Assembly: GCA_964567695.1 (NCBI GenBank)
Contig: CAZMNQ010000003.1
Coordinates: 1-37,776 of the forward strand
Reading direction: 5' to 3'
DNA from: an uncultured Bdellovibrionales bacterium
GTDB taxonomy: Bacteria; Patescibacteriota; Minisyncoccia; Moranbacterales; UBA2206
Length of the DNA: 37,776 bases
Below, one piece after another: positions 7,510-37,494 of the stretch; the first letter of the stretch is position 1; each line of letters begins with the position of its first letter. Under the pieces are notes generated by a model. That model was given only the letters and a program-made list of their open reading frames with translations. It did not search any database and was not told the origin of the DNA. Made by a program: the position numbers and the translations under genes.

Positions 7510-8760
7510 ATGAAACGAAAACTTATTTTAATTGCCTCTATTTTAATTTTTCCGTCAATGTGCCTTGGCGCATTTGATGTTGCGCAGTGGAAATATTATA
7601 AAGACATCAGCATTAATTCAGTCGGTAGTAATTTGATTAAAATTACATTGGATGACGAAATTTTTTCCGGATCGAATAAAAATCTTAGTGATGTGCGAAT
7701 CGTCGGGGGCGGTGGAAAAGAAATTCCTTTCAAAATTGTTTCCGGAAAACAAGAAACAAAAACAACTAGCCATCCTTTGAAAATGATTAACAACTCATTT
7801 GTTCCTAGCCAGTATTCTTCAGTGATTATGGATCTGGGTGAAAAAGGAAAATTGACAAACAATTTGAAGGTTGCAACGACTTCAGAAAATTTTCAAAGAA
7901 ATGTGACGGTCTATGGCAGTGATGATATGAGCAACTGGAATATATTGCGAGACAAGGCTTATATTTATGATTATACCGATCGCAAGGGCAATTTTAAATC
8001 TCAAAATACCGGCGTATCTTTTCCGGAAAGCGCCTTTCGCTATCTGAAGTTGGAAATTTCAGATGAAAACAATAGCCCGGTAAAAATAAATTCAGTAACC
8101 GCAAGTCAGAATATTGATGAGAAAAATCGCGAGGCTGAACGACATCCGCAATTTTCAAGCAGTGAAAATGCGCTAAGACAATCAACGGAGATTATCGCCG
8201 ATTTGGGACTTCAAGGTGTTCCAATGAATCGTTTGCTCTTGCGAAGCGATGATGCTAATTTCAATCGGGGAGTATTGATTTTTTCCAGTAAGGATAAAAA
8301 TGATTGGAAATTGCTCGGACAGGGATATATTTTTCGTTATAACACGCCTAAGTTTTCCGGAGAAAATTTACAGCTTAATTTTACTGAAACAAATGATCGC
8401 TATTTGAAAATTGAAGTTTTAAACAAAGATGATGCACCGCTGACATTCAAAGATGTCACGACCTATTCAATCTACCGGGAAATTATTTTTCAAGGAGAAA
8501 AAAATAAAAACTATCAAATTTTTTATGGCAATCAAAAAGCTAATTATGCGGAATATGATCTGGATAAATATTTTCAATATTTAGATGTAAATAGTGCTCA
8601 AAATGGAACGCTTTCAGCGCAAAAAGACAATGTGAGTTATGTTCCGGAAATAGAACCGGTTAAGCCTCTTTCAGAGAGAATTCCTTATTTATTTCCGACG
8701 GTTCTCGGCGTAGTTTCAGTGCTGTTGCTTTCATTAGTGTATAGATTCTTAAAGAAATAA
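7510..8760 (+). CDS. Signal-peptide protein with C-terminal TM anchor, DUF3999-like
   Basis: N-terminal signal peptide (MKRKLILIASILIFPSMCLGA). W.YYK.I......L..I.L..EIF.......LSDVRIV...GKEIPFKIV resembles the DUF3999 N-terminus. C-terminal hydrophobic anchor LFPTVLGVVSVLLLSLVYRFLKK. Starts 4 nt after the DUF2339-like gene. Confidence 0.5.
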   Translation: MKRKLILIASILIFPSMCLGAFDVAQWKYYKDISINSVGSNLIKITLDDEIFSGSNKNLSDVRIVGGGGKEIPFKIVSGKQETKTTSHPLKMINNSFVPSQYSSVIMDLGEKGKLTNNLKVATTSENFQRNVTVYGSDDMSNWNILRDKAYIYDYTDRKGNFKSQNTGVSFPESAFRYLKLEISDENNSPVKINSVTASQNIDEKNREAERHPQFSSSENALRQSTEIIADLGLQGVPMNRLLLRSDDANFNRGVLIFSSKDKNDWKLLGQGYIFRYNTPKFSGENLQLNFTETNDRYLKIEVLNKDDAPLTFKDVTTYSIYREIIFQGEKNKNYQIFYGNQKANYAEYDLDKYFQYLDVNSAQNGTLSAQKDNVSYVPEIEPVKPLSERIPYLFPTVLGVVSVLLLSLVYRFLKK

Positions 8761-8765
8761 AAACT

Positions 8766-10322
8766 ATGAACAACAAAAAATCACCCATGCTTTTGGTAAT
8801 CCTAGATGGCTGGGGTATTGCGCCACCATCCAAAGGCAATGCTATAACCTTGGCTAAAAAACCGACCCTTGATCGGCTGTATGAAATTTATCCCTCAACT
8901 CTGCTTGGTGCGACTGGCAAAGATGTTGGACTTGAAGATCATAAGATGAGCGGGTCGGAAGCTGGGCATATGAATATTGGCGCTGGCAGAGTCGTGAAAC
9001 AGGATTCACGCCATATCACTAAGAGCATACACAACAAGAGTTTTTTTGTAAATCCGGTTTTAGTTAGTGCTGTTCATCATGCGCAAAAAAATAATGGCAA
9101 TTTGCATCTGATGGGACTCATGGGAAACTCGGACAGCCCGCATAGCGTGCCGGAACATTTTCGCGCTGTTTTGCAGCTGGCAAAAAATCATAACATCAAA
9201 GAAGTTTATTGTCATTTATTTACGGATGGTCGGGATTCATATCCCAAAAGCGCGCAGGAACATTTAAAAAATTATAAACAGATAATGGCAGAAGTCGGAA
9301 TTGGAAAGATTGCAACCCTGTGCGGTCGATTTTATGCCATGGATCGCGCTAAAAATTGGAAAAGATTAACGATGGCCTATGATGCGATGGTTTTTGCCAG
9401 AGGGGAAAAGGCTAATTCGCCGGAAGAGGCTATTGAACAGGCATATGCAAATAATTTAACGGACGAGTATCTGTTGCCGACAGTTATTTTTGAACAAGGT
9501 GAGCCAGTAGTTAAAATTAGCCAGGATGATGCGATTATTTTCTATAATCTGCGTTCTGATCGAGCCAGACAATTTACCAAGCTTTTTGTGGCGATGAATA
9601 AAAAAAGCATCCTTGATGACAATATGCCAATAATCGATAAGATAAAAAATTTATATTTCGCCGCGATGACAGACTTTGGTCCGGATTTGGATATCCACAC
9701 TGCTTTTCCTGGACACACTATTTCAGCTACTTTGCCAATGATTTTAGGTGATATAAAGCAATTATATATAGCGGAGTCAGAAAAATTTGCGCATATTACA
9801 TATTTTTTGAATGGAGGCTATGCTGATCCGGTGGATGCGGAGGCTAGAATTATGATCCCATCGCCGGTAGCTGATTCATATGCTAAAGTTCCGGAAATGT
9901 CAGCGGAAGCCATAACAGATAAGGTTTTGGAATATATAAACAAGGAGGAATATGATTTTATTGCTATCAATTACGCCAATGCTGATATGGTTGGGCACAC
10001 TGGTGATTTGCTAGCAACAATCAAGGCGGTTGAATTTTTAGATAAACAGCTTAGTCGAATTGTGCCGGAAGTTCTGCAGCGCAAAGGCGTGGTAATTATC
10101 ACAGCGGATCATGGCAATGCGGACGACATGATGGATTTTGATAGCGATCAGCCCAATACCTATCACACTAAAAATCCAGTACCGTTTCTGCTGATCGGAG
10201 AAAAATTTAAAGATAGGAAATTGCGGGATGGAGGAGTACTGGGAAACATTGCTCCGACTATTTTGGATATTTTAGACATAGAAAAACCAGAATTGATGAA
10301 AAAGGAATCATTGTTAAAATAA
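8766..10322 (+). CDS. gpmI: 2,3-bisphosphoglycerate-independent phosphoglycerate mutase
   Basis: LLVILDGWGI, GSEAGHMNIGAGR, TDGRDS, ITADHGNAD. Typical length of 518 aa. Confidence 0.9.
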   Translation: MNNKKSPMLLVILDGWGIAPPSKGNAITLAKKPTLDRLYEIYPSTLLGATGKDVGLEDHKMSGSEAGHMNIGAGRVVKQDSRHITKSIHNKSFFVNPVLVSAVHHAQKNNGNLHLMGLMGNSDSPHSVPEHFRAVLQLAKNHNIKEVYCHLFTDGRDSYPKSAQEHLKNYKQIMAEVGIGKIATLCGRFYAMDRAKNWKRLTMAYDAMVFARGEKANSPEEAIEQAYANNLTDEYLLPTVIFEQGEPVVKISQDDAIIFYNLRSDRARQFTKLFVAMNKKSILDDNMPIIDKIKNLYFAAMTDFGPDLDIHTAFPGHTISATLPMILGDIKQLYIAESEKFAHITYFLNGGYADPVDAEARIMIPSPVADSYAKVPEMSAEAITDKVLEYINKEEYDFIAINYANADMVGHTGDLLATIKAVEFLDKQLSRIVPEVLQRKGVVIITADHGNADDMMDFDSDQPNTYHTKNPVPFLLIGEKFKDRKLRDGGVLGNIAPTILDILDIEKPELMKKESLLK

Positions 10323-11336: not shown

Positions 11337-13487
11337 ATGTCTGATCTAAAAAAATTATTCAATCCGCAATCTATTGCCATTGTTGGCGCTTCGCAGGAGC
11401 GGGGCAAGGTTGGAAATGTGATTGCGAAAAATATTTTGGAGCTGGGTTATGCCGGCAAGGTTTTTTTGGTTAATCCGAAACACGAGAAGCTTTTTGAGAA
11501 AAAAAGCTATCGCAGTTTGACGGAAATCACGGACAAAGTTGATTTGGCAATCGTTGTTTTGCCGTCCAAGATTGTTGTGCCGATTATCCGAGAAGCATCG
11601 GAGCGAATAAACCTCTACACCAATTCTAAAAATTATAATGCTTTAAAAAATAAACTTGGTCTAACTGATATAAAAGAAAAAATTGGTGTGGGGGTGAAAA
11701 ATTTCGTGGTGGTTTCGGCTGGTTTTTCGGAAACAGATGAGGAGGGGAAAGCACGCGAAACAGAATTAAAAAAGTTGGCGCAAGAAAAGGGGCTCAACAT
11801 TCTCGGGCCCAATTGTCTGGGATTTATAATCCCCAAATTGAAATTGAATGCGTCTTTCGCGGGCGGCCTGCCAAAGGCCGGCAACATTTCTTTTGTTTCG
11901 CAATCGGGCGCCTTGGCGGTAGCGATTATGGACATTGCTAGAAAGGAAAACATAAAATTTTCCAATATAATTTCGGTCGGCAACAAGATGCAAGTGGATG
12001 AATCGGAAATTTTGGAATATTTGGCGCAAGACGGCGAAACAAAAGTTATTGGAATGTATTTGGAAGGTATTAAAAATGGACCAAAATTTATTGAAGTTGC
12101 TCAAAGAGTTTCTATGGTCAAGCCGATTGTAATCATCAAGGCTGGCAAAAATGAGAAAACACAAAAAGCTATTGCTTCCCACACTGGCGCTTTAGCTGGC
12201 AGTGCGGATATCATGGAGGCGGTTTTTCAGAAAACCGGAATTTTGCGGGCAGAAAACTTAGAAGATTTTTTTGCATTGATTGAATTTATTTCTGTGGCGA
12301 AGCCGCCGAAAAATAATCAAGTGGCGGTCATTACTAACGCCGGTGGACTGGGCGTTCTCACGGCCGACGCTTTCAATCAAAAAGAAATCCGACTGTTTGA
12401 TTTGAACGAAAAAACAAAAAAGGAGCTGCGTGAATTTTTGCCAGACGAATCTTCGGTAGAAAATCCCGTGGATCTTTTGGGTGATGCGATGGAAGATCGT
12501 TACGAAAAAGCTTTGCAGGTGTTAGACGCGGAAAAAGAAATTGGCTCAATCTTGTGTGTTTTGACATCGCAAGATCAAACGCCAGTGGGAAAGATTACGG
12601 ATAAGATAATTGAATTTAAAAATAAGACAGACAAATTGGTGGCTACGATTTTTATCGGCGGAGAAAGGGTGGAAAAATCAATCTCAAAATTGAGAGAAAA
12701 TGATGTTCCAAATTTTTTATTTCCAGATTTAGCAGTGAAGACAATCAATGCTTATTATAATTGGAGTGTAAATATGAGTTCGATACAAAATAAAGAATTG
12801 GCTATAAATATTGAGCGAAAAAATAAAGTCGCGGAGATTATTGCGGTGGCTAAAAAGGAAAAGCGCGGCGCCTTGTCTTTTCCGGAAGCTAGCAGAATTA
12901 TGGCGCTCTATGGCATAAAAACACCTAGTGTTATAAATATCGGAGCAAAGGATATTTTACCGAAGGAGATTGGATTTCCCGTAGTTATGAAAGTGGATAG
13001 TGATAAAGTTTTGCACAAAACTGATAAACAAGGCGTTATCTTGAACATTAAAAATCAGGCTGAGTTAGAAAAAGCGCATGCACAAATGCAAGCAAATTTT
13101 CCGGGAGAGAATTTAATCTTGCAACAGATGCGTTCGATTAAAACGGAATTAATTTTGGGAATTAAAAATGACAGCATCTTTGGTCCAATCGTAGTATATG
13201 GATTGGGTGGAATTTATACCGAGGTTTTTAAAATGGTGAATTTTTTGGTTCCACCACTTAATATCCAGGAAATTAAAAATTCTTTATTGCAAAGCAAAAT
13301 AAAGTTTTTGTTTGCGGAAACCAGGGGACAAAAGGCCTATAATGTTCAAGAATTGGCTGAAATCCTGCTGGGGCTGTCAAAATTAGCCCAAGAAGCACTG
13401 GAAATACAAGAGCTGGATATTAATCCATTACTTGTCTATAATGATAACAAGGAGGCAGTGGCCATTGATGTAAAAATAATAATTTAA
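11337..13487 (+). CDS. ADP-forming acetyl-CoA synthetase / NDP-forming acyl-CoA synthetase, fused alpha-beta
   Basis: LFNPQSIAIVGAS CoA-binding start, GPNCLGFI, SQSGAL and ASHTGALAGS (phosphohistidine loop), plus a C-terminal ATP-grasp part. Contains an IR-bounded insert at 11612-11694. Confidence 0.8.
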   Translation: MSDLKKLFNPQSIAIVGASQERGKVGNVIAKNILELGYAGKVFLVNPKHEKLFEKKSYRSLTEITDKVDLAIVVLPSKIVVPIIREASERINLYTNSKNYNALKNKLGLTDIKEKIGVGVKNFVVVSAGFSETDEEGKARETELKKLAQEKGLNILGPNCLGFIIPKLKLNASFAGGLPKAGNISFVSQSGALAVAIMDIARKENIKFSNIISVGNKMQVDESEILEYLAQDGETKVIGMYLEGIKNGPKFIEVAQRVSMVKPIVIIKAGKNEKTQKAIASHTGALAGSADIMEAVFQKTGILRAENLEDFFALIEFISVAKPPKNNQVAVITNAGGLGVLTADAFNQKEIRLFDLNEKTKKELREFLPDESSVENPVDLLGDAMEDRYEKALQVLDAEKEIGSILCVLTSQDQTPVGKITDKIIEFKNKTDKLVATIFIGGERVEKSISKLRENDVPNFLFPDLAVKTINAYYNWSVNMSSIQNKELAINIERKNKVAEIIAVAKKEKRGALSFPEASRIMALYGIKTPSVINIGAKDILPKEIGFPVVMKVDSDKVLHKTDKQGVILNIKNQAELEKAHAQMQANFPGENLILQQMRSIKTELILGIKNDSIFGPIVVYGLGGIYTEVFKMVNFLVPPLNIQEIKNSLLQSKIKFLFAETRGQKAYNVQELAEILLGLSKLAQEALEIQELDINPLLVYNDNKEAVAIDVKIII
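11612..11694 (+). repeat. 83-nt inverted-repeat-bounded element inside the acetyl-CoA synthetase CDS
   Basis: Arms CCTCTACACCAATT (11612-11625) and AATTGGTGTGGGGG (11681-11694). Nine Watson-Crick pairs extend to 14 with G-U pairs on the plus strand. It coincides with an extra peptide RINLYTNSKNYNALKNKLGLTDIKEKIGV between conserved blocks. Confidence 0.6.
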
Positions 13488-13510: not shown

Positions 13511-14071
13511 ATGAGCGCGCTAAAAATTTTATTAGTAGATGATGACGAAACAATCAGAGGTATGTATGATGATATTTTCAAGAAAGAAGGTTTTGAGGTG
13601 TTTGAAGCAATAGATGGAGTAGATGGTTTGGATAAGGCGACAAAAAACATCCCAGATGTTATTTTCACCGGTATCGTTATGCCGACGATGGATGGCTTTC
13701 AACTAATGGAAGCTTTGAAAAAAAATGTCGTGACTAGCAATATTCCGGTGGTAATTTCTTCTCATCTCGGAAGGGAAGAGGATCAGAAAAAAGCGCGGGA
13801 GCTCGGAGCTAAGGAATTTTTTGTCAGAGGGCTCTACACCCCGCATGAAATAATTGATAAAATTAGAGCTTTATTTAAGGCGGATGAATATAAATTAAAA
13901 TTCAATGTAGTTGAAATGGATGCAAAAAAAATAATTAGTGATATGCAATTTAGCGAAAACTTCAAATGTTCTAAATGCGGATCTGAACTGATATTGTCAA
14001 TGAAACCCGTGGGCGCTAAAAAGAATGAATTTGTTGCCAAATTTATTTGTCCTGAGTGCGGTATTGTATAG
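13511..14071 (+). CDS. Atypical (pseudo-)receiver domain protein with C-terminal CxxC...CxxC zinc ribbon
   Basis: LLVDDDETIRGMY...MPTMDGFQLMEALK is a CheY-like REC fold. The phospho-acceptor position reads FTGIVMP (Gly instead of Asp). C-terminus is CSKCGSE...CPECG. Confidence 0.75.
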   Translation: MSALKILLVDDDETIRGMYDDIFKKEGFEVFEAIDGVDGLDKATKNIPDVIFTGIVMPTMDGFQLMEALKKNVVTSNIPVVISSHLGREEDQKKARELGAKEFFVRGLYTPHEIIDKIRALFKADEYKLKFNVVEMDAKKIISDMQFSENFKCSKCGSELILSMKPVGAKKNEFVAKFICPECGIV

Positions 14072-14074
14072 AAT

Positions 14075-14234
14075 AGACCTGTTGCGTAATAACTTACTAC
14101 TGCAATTTCCATATTTTGGCCAAATTTTCCAAAAATTTTCTTGGCTTAGCGTAGGCTAAACCGCAAAAATTGTTTGAAAAATTATGCCTCAAAATCTGAA
14201 AATTTCGTTACGCAATTTATTACGCAACGGGTCT
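14075..14234 (+). repeat. 160-nt MITE-like or structured-RNA element with 18-nt terminal inverted repeats
   Basis: AGACCTGTTGCGTAATAA (14075-14092) and TTATTACGCAACGGGTCT (14217-14234) pair at 17 of 18 Watson-Crick positions, plus one T-G pair that is a G-U wobble only on the plus strand. It begins 4 nt after the TAG stop. Confidence 0.65.
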
Positions 14235-14245
14235 AATAAATAAAG

Positions 14246-15961: not shown

Positions 15962-15977
15962 TTTTTTTAGAAAATAT

Positions 15978-16011
15978 AAAAGGAGTCTTGCGTGTTGGCA
16001 AGGCTCCTTTT
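15978..16011. terminator. Bidirectional rho-independent terminator between convergent recJ and the pyrD-like gene
   Basis: AAAAGGAGTCTTGC-GTGTTG-GCAAGGCTCCTTTT: 14-bp stem including one G-T pair, an A-run on the left and a T-run on the right. Confidence 0.7.
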
Positions 16012-16032
16012 CTGAGTGGTTGATACTGTTGC

Positions 16033-16992
16033 TCATTGATTTAATTCCCAAAGCAACTTAGCGGTTTTAATAGGATTATAAGTAGCGGCAGTGCAAATCG
16101 CGAAAAAGGTGTCTCGAGCATCTCCCTCTTTATTTACCAAAGCCGTTTTGTTAAATAGCATGGCGATATTATCCGCTGATACCCCTCCGCCGAAGATCAA
16201 AGGAATCGTGGCGGTAGGCACAACGGTCGACATAGTATAGTCGAAAGCCGGTTGCATGATGATATTGCCCGAATAACCTCCTTTGGTTTTTTCTCCGAGT
16301 GGAGATACTTCATAGGGAGATATTCCAAGTTTGACGGCGACATCAAAAGGAATAGTATTCATGCTGTGTATAATGTCCACACCAGCTTCTTCGAGTTGAG
16401 CATAGAAGCTGCTAGGATATACGATGCTGCCTTTGACTATCAGAGTTAGGTATGGAAATTCTCGCTTGATTGCCTCGCAAAGGCGTAAGATATTTCTCTG
16501 ATTGCTCAGAATATCTTCACCGGAATTTGGGCAGGATGGGTTTAGTTCGAGGATGCAGAATTTTTTCCCCAACACCCTTCGAAATATAGACAGGGCTTCC
16601 ATCGTTTCTTTGTATCCTGTCTCGTAACCCTTTGAGAAATTAACAAAGAAGCTGGGGACGACATTAAATCCCAGCGTCCAAGCAATTTTTATCATAATGG
16701 CACAAACCCATACGCCAGGATTTGTTAGTCCGTATGAATTCAGGATGCTCTGTAGGTCTTTAATTCTGTGGATGAATTTGTAGGTGAATAGATTCCACCA
16801 GATATAATTTCCATGGTGCCTGTAGCGGGTGGCCGACTTCGCAATTATCGCAGTATTGGTTAGCCAAGCTGTGAAAAGAAGAATCCAAAAAGGTGGATAA
16901 AAAATGTAGGGAAACATACCCATGCCACCATGTCCAAAGCAGGTGGATATGAGTATGTTTGTGAGTGGTTTATGCTCAGATGATTTGTTCAT
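16033..16992 (-). CDS. pyrD: Dihydroorotate dehydrogenase-like flavin TIM-barrel oxidoreductase (class 1 type)
   Basis: NSYGLTNPGV, ILELNPSCPNS (active-site Cys loop), LIVKGS, GGYSGNIIMQPA, PLIFGGGV. The likely start is ATG at 16992 (the ORF track starts 3 nt upstream at TTG), 7 nt downstream of a canonical AAGGAG (plus strand 17000-17005). Confidence 0.7.
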   Translation of the reverse strand: MNKSSEHKPLTNILISTCFGHGGMGMFPYIFYPPFWILLFTAWLTNTAIIAKSATRYRHHGNYIWWNLFTYKFIHRIKDLQSILNSYGLTNPGVWVCAIMIKIAWTLGFNVVPSFFVNFSKGYETGYKETMEALSIFRRVLGKKFCILELNPSCPNSGEDILSNQRNILRLCEAIKREFPYLTLIVKGSIVYPSSFYAQLEEAGVDIIHSMNTIPFDVAVKLGISPYEVSPLGEKTKGGYSGNIIMQPAFDYTMSTVVPTATIPLIFGGGVSADNIAMLFNKTALVNKEGDARDTFFAICTAATYNPIKTAKLLWELNQ

Positions 16993-17018
16993 CAAGATAC
17001 TCCTTTTTTCTGATTGAA

Positions 17019-18114
17019 TTAGTCCCGTACGGGAAATAATAATCTCGACCCGTTCCAGGGATTAGTGATAATCCCGTTGTTATAGGTCAAATCGTCAACT
17101 TTTTCGACAAGCTTACAGCGGTTAAATTCCTTGGAAATCGGAATCCCGAAAATCTTTCCGGCGTTCCAAGAAAGCAGTTCTGCTACGCGTTGATCAGAAA
17201 TGCCATGTTTTTGGGCGAGCGTGCAAATGACCGGAACCATTTCTTGGTTCGTGGGCAATCCTCCAAGTTTCTTTTCGATTTTTTCAGAGGTCGTGTGGTT
17301 TGCGTTGTCAGAACCGATAATAATCAATTTGATTATTTGTCAGAAGAAGACTTACGAGAAATTCACGATCTTCCCCTGAGCGTAGATTATTAAAGCACTT
17401 ATAAAAAACCGGATCCAAACTCGGATTCCAATTTGTGCCGTCCGCATCAAACCAGAGGTATTGCGGACAGAGCTCGATAACAATCCAAGGTCCTCGTAGT
17501 TGAGCTCGTAAGATAAGTTCGGCGTTTTGCCGGCACGAAACATGACAGATAACAATCTTGGCGCCTGGCACTTCTGATTCCAATGAAATCATATCTTCCA
17601 CATCAGCCACTTCGGCGTTAATGGAATTTCCTTCAATGGCAATAATTTCCGGGTTGTCGCAGTGGCGAGCATAAACCTTGCCATATTTCTTAGTAAGGCG
17701 CAGGCCGGCCAAGCGAGTTTCGCGACGACAAACCCCAATAGTTCCAGTTGTGACAGTTTTGCCGTCGGCGCTCAGGGGGTAATCCTTGAGTCCAATAACT
17801 TCATGATATTGGAGTGCGGCCTCGCATTCAGCCAGATTTGTATCTGTGATACCGAAATAGATAAATTGAGGGCATTGAATTCCAAGGACTGACTTGGCAT
17901 AGCGAATGAGGTTGATGTAGCGTCGGAGTATTTCCAATGTCGTGATTGCTGGTTTTGTATTCGGCATAAAAATGGAAGTTGAAATATGCGCTCCCATTGC
18001 TTCCAATAGAGTTTGATAGGGGGTTGTTTTATAAGATTGTTCCATGCCCCGGCTATGACAATGGCTGTCAATTATCATTGCTATCAAATACAAATACATT
18101 ATTGATCTAGACAT
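17019..18114 (-). pseudogene. pyrC: Dihydroorotase-like cyclic amidohydrolase split by a 1-nt frameshift (ORFs 17308-18114 and 17019-17327)
   Basis: N-terminal ORF has DSHCHSRG (HxH metal site), MPNTKP and CHVS. C-terminal ORF continues with IIIGSDNANH (equivalent to the D-H-A-P-H region). The two ORFs overlap by 20 nt in different frames. A canonical AAGGAG lies 8 nt upstream of the ATG at 18114. Confidence 0.7.
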
Positions 18115-18262
18115 GGATTATTCTCCTTGGTAGCTAGGGTTATATTGATTGAAAATCGGGTTATTTTGTTGGGAAGGTGCACAGTATTTGTAGCAAATTT
18201 ATATAGTTAGTGTCAACAGGAAATGGCTTTGCAACCCTTCAATAATAGTGTAGAATTAAGTT

Positions 18263-18711: not shown

Positions 18712-19722
18712 ATGAATATGAAAAAATATAGAAAAAGAATAATTTGGAGCCTGATTATCTTGGCGGTGATTTATGGCGGTTATAAATATTTTTCCGACAA
18801 CAAGCCGGTGACTACCTATGTCACGGAAGATGTGGCCAAAGGCACTTTGACGCAAACTGTTTCGGCGACGGGAAGATTTGATTCCAACGAACAAGTGGAT
18901 TTGTCATTCAAATCAACTGGTCGAATTGAAAAAATAAATGTGCAAATTGGCGACAAGGTTGTGAAAGGCCAACAATTGGCGGTGATGGAAAAAGGCGCTT
19001 TGGCGGAACAATTGCGACAAGCGGAAGCGGATATACAAGCGCAAAAAAATACTTTGAGCGATATGGTGGATAAAAAAGACACCACGACAAAAGATCAGCG
19101 CGACACGCAAAGAGCGATTGTGCAGAAAGTGGAAGCGGCGCGAGATGGGGTTTTGCGCCAGATAAGAGAAACTTCCATAGTTTCGCCGATAGACGGAATT
19201 GTGATTCAAAAAAATAATGAGGCAGGTGAATTGATTGCGGCGAACTCGCTGGTTCTGGCCGTAGCCAATCCAAATGATTTGGTTATTGAATCAAATATTC
19301 CGGAAGTCGACATTATTAAGGTGGCTATCGGGCAATCTGCCATAGTAACTTTTGATGCCCTGACGGAGAAGGATGTTTTTATAGCCAAGGTGATTGAAAT
19401 TGATCCGGCTTCGACCGTGATTCAGGATGTGGTTTTCTATCGCGTCAAATTGAAAATTGATAACGCTGACGGTCGGCTCAAGATTGGCATGAGTTGCAAT
19501 GATGATATTTTGACGGCGGAAAAAAATGATGTATTAATGATTCCGGAGCGCGCCGTGAAAACAGAAGGCGAAAAACAATTTGTAGAAGTTTTAAAAGCCG
19601 ATGGCATCACGATTGAAAAAGTCTATGTTGAAACCGGTTTGTCAGGGGACAACGGAATGATTGAAGTGAAGAACAATTTGAAAGAAGGCGAGAAAGTTGT
19701 GACTCTTACAAAAAGCGTATAA
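18712..19722 (+). CDS. Membrane-fusion / periplasmic adaptor protein (HlyD/MacA/YknX type)
   Basis: N-terminal TM, lipoyl-like hairpin (GRIEKINVQIGDKVVKGQQLAVM ... SPIDGIVI), central coiled coil and beta-barrel C-terminus. Confidence 0.8.
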   Translation: MNMKKYRKRIIWSLIILAVIYGGYKYFSDNKPVTTYVTEDVAKGTLTQTVSATGRFDSNEQVDLSFKSTGRIEKINVQIGDKVVKGQQLAVMEKGALAEQLRQAEADIQAQKNTLSDMVDKKDTTTKDQRDTQRAIVQKVEAARDGVLRQIRETSIVSPIDGIVIQKNNEAGELIAANSLVLAVANPNDLVIESNIPEVDIIKVAIGQSAIVTFDALTEKDVFIAKVIEIDPASTVIQDVVFYRVKLKIDNADGRLKIGMSCNDDILTAEKNDVLMIPERAVKTEGEKQFVEVLKADGITIEKVYVETGLSGDNGMIEVKNNLKEGEKVVTLTKSV

Positions 19723-19777
19723 AACAGGCAGTTCTTCAAATTTACCAAGGCACTTTTTTTAATTATACTCTTATTTT

Positions 19778-20506
19778 ATGAATTTGTCAAGTTTAATTCA
19801 GATAAAAAATTTATCAAAAACTTACGAAAATGAAGGGGTCGCGACTCCGGCAGTTTGCAGCGTGTCATTTGCGATTGAAAAAGGTGAATTTGTTTCAATT
19901 ATGGGACCGTCCGGTTCCGGCAAATCAACCCTGATGCAGATGTTGGGTTTTTTGGATCGGCCGACTGACGGAGAATATTTGTTTGAAGAAAAAAACACCG
20001 AGGGTTTCTCGGATGATGAGCTGGCGGAAATTCGCAATTCCAAAGTTGGTTTTGTTTTTCAAACCTTCAATTTGTTGCCCAGAACGACAGTTTTTGAAAA
20101 TGTCGAACTGCCGCTTCTATATGACAAAAAATTTTTCGAAGATAACACGCAAAAAGTTTTACAAGCTTTGCGCAGCGTTGGTATGGAACACCGCAAGGAC
20201 TATTTTTCCAATCAACTTTCCGGCGGTGAACGGCAGCGCGTGGCCATTGCGCGCGCTTTGGTCAATGACCCAAGTGTGATTTTTGCCGATGAACCAACTG
20301 GCAACCTGGATTCCAAATCCGGCACGCAAGTGATGAAAATTTTGCAGAAACTCAACGACGAAGGCAAGACAATAATCCTTGTTACACATGAGACTTTCAC
20401 CGCTGAGCATGGCAAGAGAATTATTAAGATGGTGGATGGAGCCATTGTTTTTGATGAGCTGATTGCCAATCGTCGTATTGCAACCGATGGTGAATTATTG
20501 AAATAG
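19778..20506 (+). CDS. ABC transporter ATP-binding protein, MacB/LolD family
   Basis: Walker A GPSGSGKST, signature LSGGERQRVAIARAL, Walker B VIFADEPTGNLD, H-loop VTHE. Confidence 0.9.
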   Translation: MNLSSLIQIKNLSKTYENEGVATPAVCSVSFAIEKGEFVSIMGPSGSGKSTLMQMLGFLDRPTDGEYLFEEKNTEGFSDDELAEIRNSKVGFVFQTFNLLPRTTVFENVELPLLYDKKFFEDNTQKVLQALRSVGMEHRKDYFSNQLSGGERQRVAIARALVNDPSVIFADEPTGNLDSKSGTQVMKILQKLNDEGKTIILVTHETFTAEHGKRIIKMVDGAIVFDELIANRRIATDGELLK

Positions 20507-20523
20507 AAAAATAGGCTAATATT

Positions 20524-31090: not shown

Positions 31091-32023
31091 ATGTTAAATA
31101 TTCAAAAAAATATAAATATAGCTCCCTACACAACTTTCAAAATCGGCGGACCAGCGAAATATTTTGCAGAGGTTAATTCGGAGGAAGATATTTTTGAGGC
31201 GCTGAGATATGCCAAGGATAATGGCCTGCAATTTTTTATATTGGGTGGCGGTAGCAATATTTTGGTGAATGACAAAGGCTTTGACGGGTTGATTATAAAA
31301 ATGAAATTAGATGATCTCAAGATGGATGTGTCTCGGGGCATAATCGAAATCGGGGCAGGGGTGATTCTGGCGAAAATAGTGAAAAATTCCACTGCCGAGG
31401 GATTGACGGGCCTAGAATGGGCTTCCGGCATCCCTGGGACGGTTGGCGGAGCATTGAGGGGCAATGCGAGAGCTTTTGGACGCAATATCGGTATGTCAGT
31501 CGAAACTATTGAGGCACTAGATATTACGACCCTAGAAAGAACCACTTATAATAATTCCGAGTGTGAATTTGCCTATTGGGGTAGTATGTTTAAAAAAAAT
31601 CCCAACCTGATTATTTTGTCCGCTAAGATTAAGCTGGAAAAAGGTGACGCGGAAAAAAGTCAACAAGAGGCCAGGAATATTATAGTCAAAAGAATGGCTA
31701 TACATCCGACAGGCAGCAGCGCAGGTTCATTTTTTCTAAATCCAGTGGTGTTTGATGAAAAATTGCGGGAGAGATTTGAAAAGGATTCCGGAACAGCCTG
31801 TCGAGACAACAAAATTCCTGCTGGCTGGCTAATAGACGAAGTTGGACTGCGCGGTAAAAAAATAGGCGGAATTCAAGTGAGCGAAAAACATGCGAACTTT
31901 GTAATAAATATTGGGGGCGGAACAGCCGAGGAGGTTGTGATGCTGACAAGCTTTGTTAAACAGCAAGTGCGTGATAAACTAGGGATTGAGTTGCAAGAAG
32001 AAATTCAATTTGTAGGGTTCTGA
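31091..32023 (+). CDS. murB: UDP-N-acetylenolpyruvoylglucosamine reductase
   Basis: YTTFKIGGPAKYF, ILGGGSNILV, GIPGTVGGA, GSFFLNP, AGWLID..GLRG...G...VS.KHANF. Confidence 0.9.
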   Translation: MLNIQKNINIAPYTTFKIGGPAKYFAEVNSEEDIFEALRYAKDNGLQFFILGGGSNILVNDKGFDGLIIKMKLDDLKMDVSRGIIEIGAGVILAKIVKNSTAEGLTGLEWASGIPGTVGGALRGNARAFGRNIGMSVETIEALDITTLERTTYNNSECEFAYWGSMFKKNPNLIILSAKIKLEKGDAEKSQQEARNIIVKRMAIHPTGSSAGSFFLNPVVFDEKLRERFEKDSGTACRDNKIPAGWLIDEVGLRGKKIGGIQVSEKHANFVINIGGGTAEEVVMLTSFVKQQVRDKLGIELQEEIQFVGF

Positions 32024-32182
32024 GAGCCTGTTCATAATCTCCGTATTCTGCTGCGAAATTGAAATTCCGGCTGCAAATTGTTCAAAATTCGTCGAAATAT
32101 CCAGATATTCCTCCTCATTTTTCACAATTTTCGCTCGAAATTTCAATCTCTCGCGACGAAAGAGAGATTATGAGCAGGCTCT
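32023..32182 (+). repeat. 160-nt MITE-like or structured-RNA element with 19-nt terminal inverted repeats
   Basis: AGAGCCTGTTCATAATCTC (32023-32041) and GAGATTATGAGCAGGCTCT (32164-32182) pair at 18 of 19 Watson-Crick positions, plus one T-G (plus-strand G-U). It starts at the last base of the murB TGA stop. Internal sub-hairpins are present. Confidence 0.65.
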
Positions 32183-36042: not shown

Positions 36043-37494
36043 TTAAACGATTTCTCCTTCCAAATTCCAAATGCTAACTTTAGTAATTTTAACTTTTATA
36101 ATCTTGCCAATCAGAGATCCCTCGACAAGTTCGGGATGACAATCGTTACTGATTGTCATTTTGACATTTTTTCCGGTGCGGGTTTTGCCGAAATAAATAT
36201 GGTGCTTTCCTAGAGCTAAGCTCTTGGAATCCAAGAGCTTAGCTCTAGGAGAACTTTCCTTTTCGATCAGGATTTCGACAGTCGTGTTGAGGAATTTTTT
36301 GCTATTTTTCAGCGCGGTCTTTTTCAGGATTTCATTTAAAAATTGTTCGCGACGGGCTTTTTCGGTTTTGGAAACTGAGTCTTTCATATTCCAAGCCGGT
36401 GTGCCGGGGCGGGGGGAAAATTGGCCAAAGAAAACCATGTCGTAACCGACTTTTTCCATGATTTCCGCAGAGTCTAAAAATTGTTTTTTGGTTTCACTTG
36501 GGAAGCCGACAATGATATCGGAAGTGATGACGGCTGGCACGCCCGATTTATTTTTTTTGAAAGCGGCTTGAATTTTTTTAACTAAAATCAAATATTCTTG
36601 CGCGGTGTATTTGCGATTCATTTTTCTGAGGACTTCATCATTGCCAGCTTGGATGGGCAGATGAAAAGCTTCGCAAACTTTTTTGCATTTCGTTACTGTT
36701 TCAATCATTTCTGGCGACACATCTTTCGGGTGATTGCTGACAAAGCGAATCCAAAATTTTCCCGGGATGGCGTTGACTTTTTTTACGAGCTTAGAAAAAT
36801 TTATTTTGCCATCCGAGTATGAATTAACATTTTGTCCAAGCAAAGTTATTTCTTTGTAGCCTTTTTTCACTAGATTTTTTACTTCATAAATTATTTCTTC
36901 CGCCGGTCTGGAAACTTCCCGTCCACGAGCATAGGGCACGACGCAGTAGGCGCAGAAATTGTTGCAGCCGGTCATAATCGGCACAAAAGCTTGATATGCA
37001 TTTGTAAGTTTTGGTTTAATGGATAGATAAGAGATATTTTCTTTGCTTAGTTCGATATTTTTTTGTGCCGAAATTTTCAATTTACAATTTACAACCTTGC
37101 CTGCCGGCAGGCAGGTTTTCAATGAATTTTCAATGATAAAATTTTCAAACAGCTCAAAATTGTTAATAGGGGAAAATAAATCAACTTTATTTTTTAGTCT
37201 TCTTTGCACATCTTTGCGGTTGGCGAGACAACCAGTTAAAACAATCTTGATTTTTGGATTAGCCTTTTTGAGATTATGAACTTGTCCATAGACCCGATCT
37301 TCGGCCATTTGGCGCACCCCACAGGTGTTGAAAATGACCAAACCTGCCTTCGCTAAGGCTTCGGCAGGCAAGTCAGCATTTTCGTTCCTAGTAAGTGGTT
37401 CTAGTCCTTGTGATTCCAGAAAACTGGCAATCCGCTCACTGTCTGAATGGTTCATCTGGCAACCAAAAGTTTTGATAGAGTATGTTTTATTCAT
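36043..37494 (-). CDS. miaB: tRNA-i6A37 methylthiotransferase (radical SAM MTTase)
   Basis: TFGCQMNHSDSE and FNTCGVR (N-terminal cluster), GCNNFCAYCVVPYARGRE (radical SAM CxxxCxxC), C-terminal TRAM domain. Contains at least three palindromic in-frame inserts. Confidence 0.9.
   Translation of the reverse strand: MNKTYSIKTFGCQMNHSDSERIASFLESQGLEPLTRNENADLPAEALAKAGLVIFNTCGVRQMAEDRVYGQVHNLKKANPKIKIVLTGCLANRKDVQRRLKNKVDLFSPINNFELFENFIIENSLKTCLPAGKVVNCKLKISAQKNIELSKENISYLSIKPKLTNAYQAFVPIMTGCNNFCAYCVVPYARGREVSRPAEEIIYEVKNLVKKGYKEITLLGQNVNSYSDGKINFSKLVKKVNAIPGKFWIRFVSNHPKDVSPEMIETVTKCKKVCEAFHLPIQAGNDEVLRKMNRKYTAQEYLILVKKIQAAFKKNKSGVPAVITSDIIVGFPSETKKQFLDSAEIMEKVGYDMVFFGQFSPRPGTPAWNMKDSVSKTEKARREQFLNEILKKTALKNSKKFLNTTVEILIEKESSPRAKLLDSKSLALGKHHIYFGKTRTGKNVKMTISNDCHPELVEGSLIGKIIKVKITKVSIWNLEGEIV
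36116..36159 (-). repeat. Hairpin-containing in-frame insert in the miaB TRAM domain
   Basis: ATGACAATC-GTTACT-GATTGTCAT hairpin at 36136-36159, next to CCCTCGACAAGTTCGGG. Encodes TISNDCHPELVEGS between conserved V.M and LIGKIIKVKI. Confidence 0.55.
36208..36250. repeat. Near-perfect 41-43-nt palindrome in frame inside miaB
   Basis: CCTAGAGCTAAGCTCTTGGA-A-TCCAAGAGCTTAGCTCTAGG: 20 of 20 pairs around a single central base, and each arm is itself palindromic (AGAGCTAAGCTCT). Encodes SPRAKLLDSKSLALG. Confidence 0.75.
37072..37149 (-). repeat. Family P1 full-length element (core 37095-37115), 78 nt, in frame inside miaB
   Basis: Minus strand reads TTTGAAAATTTTATCATTGAAAATTCATTGAAAA-CCTGCCTGCCGGCAAGG-TTGTAAATTGTAAATTGAAAATT. 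It shares ATTGTAAATTGAAAATT and the left arm with the intergenic copy at 28393-28469. Encodes FENFIIENSLKTCLPAGKVVNCKLKI. Confidence 0.8.

Follow-up and report, generated by a model that had tools for sequence, protein, structure and literature searches.

A palindromic element probably inserted in frame in the acyl-CoA synthetase gene of an uncultured Patescibacteriota bacterium

The first 37,776 nucleotides (nt) of contig CAZMNQ010000003.1, from an uncultured bacterium assigned to the Moranbacterales (Patescibacteriota), were analyzed as a single stretch, hereafter called the window, whose G+C content is about 39%. On its + strand, the window carries at 11337-13487 a gene encoding a 716-amino-acid (aa) ADP-forming acyl-CoA synthetase of the acetate--CoA ligase family, as assigned from Pfam, PDB matches and an AlphaFold2 model compared by Foldseek. 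Within this gene and on the same strand, a left arm CCTCTACACCAATT (11612-11625) and a right arm AATTGGTGTGGGGG (11681-11694) enclose an A/T-rich core of 55 nt (11626-11680). Together they form an 83-nt palindromic element (11612-11694) which falls on residues that homologous enzymes do not possess. The best reading of these data, which we consider probable, is that a member of a new family of palindromic elements has inserted in frame and is translated and tolerated by the host enzyme.

The host protein contains the CoA_binding_2, Succ_CoA_lig, Ligase_CoA_2 and ATP-grasp_5 domains and has kept all the invariant residues of its family. The SHTGALAG histidine motif is present, and its residues S281-H282-T283-G284 are invariant in the homologue alignment. 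Sequence searches of the PDB matched 8wzu (E = 6e-114), 4xyl, the alpha subunit of the ADP-forming acetyl-CoA synthetase (ACD) from Korarchaeum (E = 6e-85), and 2csu. The AlphaFold2 model (56 sequences), which has a predicted local distance difference test score (pLDDT) of 88.9 and a predicted TM score (pTM) of 0.86, gave TM scores of 0.92 to 8wzu and 0.93 to 4xym, each normalized to the target. The protein thus shares all domains, motifs and the predicted fold of the ADP-forming acetyl-CoA synthetases of the NDP-forming superfamily (4xyl, 8wzu), from which it differs by 29 extra residues located in domain 1, between the helix following strand 4 and strand 5. The host gene is intact and under strong purifying selection, with a ratio of nonsynonymous to synonymous divergence (dN/dS) of 0.067 relative to its closest relative.

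The additional residues (92-120, NLYTNSKNYNALKNKLGLTDIKEKIGVGV) are encoded by 87 nt, that is 29 codons, at 11610-11696 on the + strand, the placement being ambiguous by up to 3 nt owing to shared A's. The homologue set consisted of the 119 best database matches (56-85% identity to the query, 674-756 aa) which, where named, are acetate--CoA ligase family proteins of Moranbacteria, Parcubacteria or Patescibacteria. All 119 exhibit a gap of 29 columns at this position, between ...REASER and (I/V)KNFVV(I/V)SAGF. A previous examination of this DNA, made without database searches and termed here the sequence-only reading, had proposed that the element coincides with an extra peptide separating two blocks which are adjacent in the family. 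Both proposals hold, as these blocks are adjacent in every homologue examined and none of the homologues has an equivalent conserved segment at the insertion site. Similarly, HMMER alignments to PDB 8wzu, 4xyl and 2csu (and also 9y43) are interrupted between query residues 89/90 and 118/120 with no corresponding break in the targets, and the Pfam CoA_binding_2 match ends at residue 90.

At the DNA level, the comparison was made with the closest relative, protein P0002 at locus L001. The two proteins are 85% identical, the gene order is the same as in the window, the synonymous divergence (dS) is about 0.96, and the alignment contains a single clean gap of 87 nt. The empty site of L001 is CGAATAAAGAATTTC and its junction reads ...GCGCGA ATA / AAG AAT TTC, compared with ...GAGCGA ATA [AAC CTC ... 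GGG GTG] AAA AAT TTC in the window; an empty site is also present in L002. In the population represented by the window, the filled site is the only one that was encountered. The 90% cluster of the query comprises seven members, all of 715 or 716 aa, and the insert peptide is identical in the six whose sequences were compared. The element is identical in DNA in two strain variants, single contigs from eight public aquifer and groundwater runs read through it, and no empty-site allele was found in these eight runs, which hold this genome. Since the insertion is identical in independent assemblies and is read through in eight runs, it is not an assembly artefact. Neither the 119 homologues, nor the solved structures, nor the L001 DNA contain it, which argues for a derived insertion, acquired after the split from the L001 lineage. 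On these comparisons, the segment is established as a real and derived insertion of exactly 29 codons.

The sequence-only reading had also described a 14-bp stem, G-U pairs being allowed on the sense strand, around an A/T-rich loop of 55 nt, and its coordinates and sequences were confirmed. On the + strand, the arms form 12 Watson-Crick and two U.G pairs, and the pairing of A11611 with T11695 extends the stem to 15 bp. In the predicted fold of the sense-strand RNA, the centroid has the arms paired (-18 kcal/mol, z = -4.2, equalled by none of 200 shuffles), while the antisense strand folds less stably (-15.1 kcal/mol, z = -3.1). When the inserted segment was shuffled 200,000 times, a terminal stem of at least 14 bp, offsets of up to 5 nt being allowed, arose only 3 times. 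In the window itself, terminal stems of at least 14 bp occur in 18 of 37,688 frames of 88 nt, a count which includes frames overlapping this element. The G+C content of the element is 29%, against 39% for the remainder of the host gene. No covariance model of Rfam 15 matched the window at its gathering score, matches on 11550-11760 being at chance level (E >= 0.4), and no promoter or terminator consensus was found within the element. Nothing else similar to its arms or core was found in the window.

Relatives of the hairpin were found in other genomes. Scanning of GTDB species genomes with the pattern CTACACCAATT-N40-70-AATTGGTGTRG returned 12 loci, and scanning of JGI metagenomes with an N30-60 spacer and a ...GTGG ending returned 12 further loci. 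Eight distinct loci, including the window, share three features beyond the search pattern and define family A, with arms CC(C)CTACACCAATT / AATTGGTGTGGG(G). First, the stem extends outward as CC(C)/GG(G); second, the core is A/T-rich with a G+C content far below that of its surroundings; third, a T.G position is conserved, with T in the left arm and G in the right arm. These arms are kept across contigs of 38-58% G+C. Outside the window, the cores measure 36-59 nt and are unrelated in sequence, and the core of the window element has no similarity to them either. The element's arms are thereby shown, at the level of sequence comparison, to belong to a dispersed family. Several other matches (L003-L007, L010-L014, L017, L020, L023 and L025) were rejected as chance matches to the pattern, having no extended stem and an ordinary composition; of the matches located in high-G+C or non-candidate-phyla contigs, most pair no further than the pattern itself.

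The other seven members of family A lie in varied, for the most part intergenic, contexts. In a Parcubacteria genome (L008), a copy with a 50-nt core is located between lepA and a DivIC-family gene whose ATG it abuts; in a Moraniibacteriota genome (L009), a copy with a 40-nt core separates an FtsW/RodA-family gene from the L25 gene. In metagenomes, one locus (L015, identical to L016 and L021; 36-nt core) lies between ftsH and the gene for tRNA-Ile(UAU), the outer GGG of the stem being the first three bases of the tRNA. Other metagenomic copies are found between an HTH_25-domain gene and recA (L022; 36-nt core), directly past the stop codon of a Mg-chelatase/ComM-like gene and before a Shine-Dalgarno sequence and ATG (L024; 59-nt core), and between a gene encoding a 317-aa protein and dnaJ (L026; 41-nt core). 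In L019, the copy (1054-1134; 54-nt core) is on the opposite strand at the 3' end of a response-regulator receiver open reading frame (ORF). There, the ORF, complete in all other respects, takes its final eight codons (SPHQFSAE) and its stop codon from the element. From its sequence, this appears to be a second case of family A contributing coding sequence. L016 is the only contig with two copies. The second one, located 10.6 kb off between a 128-aa ORF and a 754-aa valS-like ORF, is short (TTACTACACCAATT, a 10-nt loop and AATTGGTGTAGTAA). Overall, six of the eight family A copies are sense relative to local transcription, which is not significant.

The reading frame offers further support. 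Only one of the six frames of the element is free of stop codons, and it is the frame in use, so that the gene stayed open. Across family A, seven open sense frames were counted against 4.4 expected (P = 0.10, not significant), and each of the other members has zero to two open frames, no more than shuffled cores. As open frames are no commoner than in shuffled cores, a stop-free insertion in frame would be a rare survivor and not a design feature of the family. The T at 11614 is private to the window copy (CCTC, compared with CCCC in the family) and replaces a Pro by a Leu codon, a change which would fit an adjustment after insertion. Translation of the element, which the sequence-only reading had stated, is inferred from the 29 whole stop-free codons and from the purifying selection acting on the gene.

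How the enzyme accommodates the additional residues can be suggested from the model. Residues 91-120 are predicted with a pLDDT of 53-59; helix 77-107 is prolonged and is followed by a coil leading into strand 122-125. In a Rossmann fold, helix-to-strand connections lie at the N-terminal end of the strands, on the face opposite to the ligand site. The insert is at the N-terminal end of the KNFVVVSAGF strand and the ligand site at its SAGF end; thus, the insertion should be tolerated. The insert is most likely a surface loop which is tolerated rather than functional, its neutrality being deduced from this predicted position. The 32-aa insert segment, searched with phmmer against 1.84 billion representative proteins, had no match at E <= 0.001; this set keeps one protein per 50% cluster, and relatives may hide in it.

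Collectively, these data suggest the following scenario. A copy of family A would have inserted, by transposition as we infer, into the acyl-CoA synthetase gene of a Moranbacteria-like population after its split from the P0002/L001 lineage. The 83-nt element, together with a probable 4-bp target duplication, would have added 87 nt, that is 29 codons, the frame of the gene happening to coincide with the sole stop-free frame of the element. The insert would then be translated as a helix extension and a loop between the helix following the fourth strand and the KNFVVVSAGF strand, in the N-terminal, Rossmann-like CoA-binding domain. The putative target duplication consists of TAAA (11608-11611, + strand) and TGAA (11695-11698, + strand), the right copy having one mismatch. 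It is suggested by the empty site of L001, by the inserted length of 83 + 4 nt, and by L009, where the element is flanked on both sides by TCAA, a clean 4-bp direct repeat. In the window, the mismatch would reflect a change of GTA to GTG, which is synonymous. Duplication of 4 bp at sites resembling T-N-A-A is likely but not established.

Several observations weigh against this scenario. The flanking repeats match imperfectly in three members, namely the window copy, L024 (TTAA/TGAA) and L015 (TCAG/CCAG), and none is visible in L008, L019, L022 and L026. Family A is defined by its arms alone, 22 positions of which were forced by the search pattern. A second copy is absent from the 37.8-kb window, and no other contig of at least 80% identity was found in the eight metagenome runs containing this genome. 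Each of two GTDB genomes has one copy matching the strict pattern, which is unusually few for a miniature inverted-repeat transposable element (MITE); the scans demanded exact arms, however, and diverged copies would escape them. Neither a transposase nor an autonomous partner was identified with pattern searches that are too short to span an insertion sequence of 1-2 kb, and two scans of viral contigs for the family A pattern gave zero matches. Finally, the arm sequences of the element also form a native helix of the 23S rRNA in one metagenomic contig (L018).

This last observation bears on an alternative in which the element is not selfish DNA but a functional motif with a conserved stem. 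It would be a protein-binding site, possibly for the same protein as the matching 23S helix, kept for regulation or processing, and its copy in the synthetase gene would be co-opted or accidental. In L018 (2641-2722), CTCTACACCAATT ... AATTGGTGTGGGG, identical to the element's arms, are the two strands of a native helix and not an insertion. They align with high posterior probability to positions ~629-711 of the Rfam large subunit (LSU) rRNA model, with a normal conserved interior between them. Such a function would be consistent with the identity of the arms to this helix, with the conservation of arms across contigs of widely different composition while loops are unconstrained, and with the location of several copies just before the 5' end of a gene or tRNA. 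Yet, requiring an exact match in the scans accounts for part of the arm conservation. In aquifer 23S genes, the matching rRNA helix is hypervariable from one organism to the next, and its L018 form is present in no aligned contig of runs X1-X3, which contain this genome. Moreover, the gene contexts have no common theme and a regulatory site is unexpected in the middle of a coding region. The match in L018 may be due to chance, given the many rRNA variants in the collection, or alternatively to mimicry. We regard a functional motif of this kind as unlikely.

Alternatively, the insert could be an ordinary lineage-specific surface loop, perhaps adaptive, generated by local duplication or slippage, its terminal complementarity being incidental. 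It does occupy a loop position tolerant of length change, it is present in a single copy in this genome, and its peptide has no relatives among the representative proteins searched. However, the shuffles indicate that such arms are improbable by chance, the insert resembles neither neighbouring nor any other sequence of the window, and its low G+C content marks it as foreign to the gene. In addition, hairpins having these arms, asymmetric in the same way, are found elsewhere, at unrelated loci of other genomes and of metagenome contigs. Going by their sequences, these family A members largely refute the ordinary-loop explanation, which we judge very unlikely. Least probable of all is an RNA-level intervening sequence, whose transcript hairpin would be recognized (e.g. 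by RNase III, followed by ligation) and removed or processed, yielding a protein devoid of the insert or a regulated or cleaved mRNA. In its favour, the predicted hairpin is stable, and more so on the sense strand, where both mismatches are G-U; six of the eight family members are sense, the family has a conserved T.G position, and the rRNA genes of candidate phyla carry insertions removed post-transcriptionally. Against it, the orientation bias is not significant, and no bacterial system that cuts and religates mRNA is known. Moreover, the 83 nt from stem to stem are not a multiple of three, while the indel amounts to precisely 29 codons, free of stops only in the frame of the gene, which is predicted by selection on translation and unnecessary if the segment is excised.

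A tolerated insertion of a palindromic element thus remains the preferred reading, and it has precedents. In-frame insertions of palindromic elements and MITEs have been documented, notably for the Rickettsia palindromic elements (RPEs), other MITEs providing fewer cases (PMC10969869; PMC5896051). Like the element described here, RPEs are small palindromes found in frame in housekeeping genes of a reduced genome and encoding a peptide compatible with the protein fold (PMC10969869). RPEs measure ~100-150 bp, form families defined by sequence with conserved encoded peptides, and reach tens of copies per genome. By contrast, the present element measures 83 bp, occurs in another phylum and in a single copy in its genome, and has neither a conserved core nor a conserved peptide. 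RPEs would therefore be its closest analogue by description and not by sequence, and no membership in RPE-1 to RPE-10 is implied.

Bacterial MITEs such as Correia/NEMIS, ERIC, RUP and Coxiella QMITE1/2 likewise are small, transposase-less and bounded by terminal inverted repeats, and have short flanking direct repeats to which the putative 4-bp duplication would correspond; they are mostly intergenic, with an occasional overlap with ORFs (PMC10969869; PMC5896051). As expected for a MITE, the terminal repeats of the window element coincide exactly with the ends of the indel, its 83 nt contain no transposase gene, and a filled site can be compared with an empty one, while multiple copies within the genome were not found in the window and the eight runs. 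Typical MITE families also have conserved cores and many copies, whereas family A members share their arms alone, are present in one or two copies per contig or genome, and have no known parent insertion sequence.

Another possible relationship is with repetitive extragenic palindromes (REPs) and REPINs, which are mobilized by RAYT transposases and, like family A, are hairpins with a conserved imperfect stem and mismatch, CTAC/GTAG in one arm, and a variable loop or spacer. The likeness to family A is a lead only, as REPs have hundreds of extragenic copies and an adjacent RAYT gene, while family A has few copies, one of them intragenic. No RAYT gene was noticed at the family A loci, where ORFs are only partly annotated. 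All in all, the window element is probably a non-autonomous, MITE- or REP-like palindromic element.

Parcubacteria orthologues of the same enzyme contain other palindromic inserts. In P0044 and P0076, which are 64% identical, SAGF(A/G)E is directly followed by an insert of 18 aa (HPVKS...FNG), located some ten codons past the insertion site of the window. This insert is encoded by another palindromic element, family B, found in frame in the two ACD orthologues (L029, 2963-3010; L030, 1226-1273) and in an intergenic region (L026, 429-476). Its arms, CCCCGTTAAAT / ATTTAACGGGG, are identical in both orthologues, synonymous positions included. Between them are two small hairpins, the stems of which have diverged with compensating changes that preserve pairing, resulting in a Y-shaped fold (-31 kcal/mol, z = -4.3 to -5.7; -26 to -35 kcal/mol for the family). 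Family B has no Rfam entry.

Four further orthologues (P0070, P0077, P0078 and P0111) carry inserts of the SAKGGSASGG type. In P0070, the corresponding DNA consists of TCCGCC-NNN-GGCGGA hairpins (L033, 2192-2221). This 15-nt unit also occurs in L016 (611, 4698, 6008, 6023, 10343, 11479 and 11496), L009 (3421 and 3436), L015 (970) and L030 (5790). It is often in tandem, both intergenic and in frame, for instance as SAKGGS...ASGGK in a valS-like gene, and is absent from the window. Since two other kinds of palindromes are found in frame in orthologues, in-frame palindromic insertions appear to be recurrent in these genomes. The NLYT(K/R)NL linker peptides of P0043 and P0115, considered as a second family A insertion, were rejected because their DNA has no paired arms.

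A broader interpretation is that family A, family B and the TCCGCC-NNN-GGCGGA hairpins are not ordinary selfish DNA but a class of modules, common in candidate-phyla bacteria, with a conserved stem and a free loop, recognized by a conserved host or mobile protein. One of them has its stem in common with a 23S rRNA helix, and their entry into coding regions would be frequent enough to make them a regular source of new surface loops in proteins of these minimal genomes. This generalization is unlikely. In a stronger version, the stem could be a recognition site at the RNA level, coupling expression of the synthetase to the recognizing factor.

Returning to the tolerated insertion of a family A element, what is described here is a known phenomenon, that of in-frame palindromic elements in Rickettsia, repeated in a new bacterial group. 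Genomes of Patescibacteria (candidate-phyla bacteria) are ~1 Mb in size and gene-dense, like those of Rickettsia, in which the presence of selfish palindromes within protein-coding genes was originally recognized. The present data suggest that the same process, in which palindromes enter genes, operates in candidate-phyla bacteria as in Rickettsia. Within the literature that was searchable, no paper was found on in-frame palindromic insertions in candidate-phyla bacteria. Here, a conserved enzyme of central metabolism, catalyzing the ATP-yielding step of fermentative acetate formation, would have absorbed a foreign hairpin in the form of 29 residues. If general, such insertions would affect gene calling and domain annotation, as exemplified by the Pfam CoA-binding match which is cut at the insert. 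They would also provide raw material for new protein loops, and their presence or absence could serve as a marker with which to follow strains in aquifer communities. The profile of family A, with conserved arms, free cores and a low copy number but a spread across genomes, raises the question of the mobilizing agent.

The window contains other inverted repeats, to which the sequence-only reading had attributed the same design as the element studied here. The generic layout, an inverted repeat with an A/T-rich core, is indeed common to them, but their arm sequences are unrelated. One is located at 14067-14242, between a response-regulator gene and recJ; it has arms of ~18-29 nt, AGACCTGTTGCGTAATAA / TTATTACGCAACGGGTCT, and AAT on both flanks. 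It is absent from L001, where the spacer is ~40 nt, which indicates that inverted-repeat elements of different kinds have entered this genome. The intergenic repeat at 235-298 has arms unrelated both to the studied element and to the intergenic repeat at 32023-32182, a palindrome with 79-nt arms and 71% complementarity. A perfect 21-bp palindrome is also present at 36208-36250 (TCCTAGAGCTAAGCTCTTGGA / TCCAAGAGCTTAGCTCTAGGA, with 1 nt between the arms).

Larger differences from L001 were observed as well. On the - strand, a 2.3-kb block at 15962-18262 is present in the strain variants L027 and L028, whereas L001 lacks it and has in its place a spacer of 25 nt. It encodes a DHO_dh-family protein (16033-16995) and two overlapping ORFs without Pfam match (17019-17327 and 17308-18114); its G+C content (0.43-0.45) is higher than that of its surroundings and its GC skew lower. 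Conversely, L001 contains a 93-aa gene and a 23S_rRNA_IVP-family gene (8437-8929 and 9652-10119) which are missing at the window spacers 19722-19785 and 20508-20522. Lastly, the response regulator encoded downstream of the synthetase gene (13511-14071) has a C-terminal CxxC...CxxC tail with a sub-threshold likeness to the zinc ribbon of IS1595 transposases (E = 8e-4), which is probably a plain zinc ribbon.

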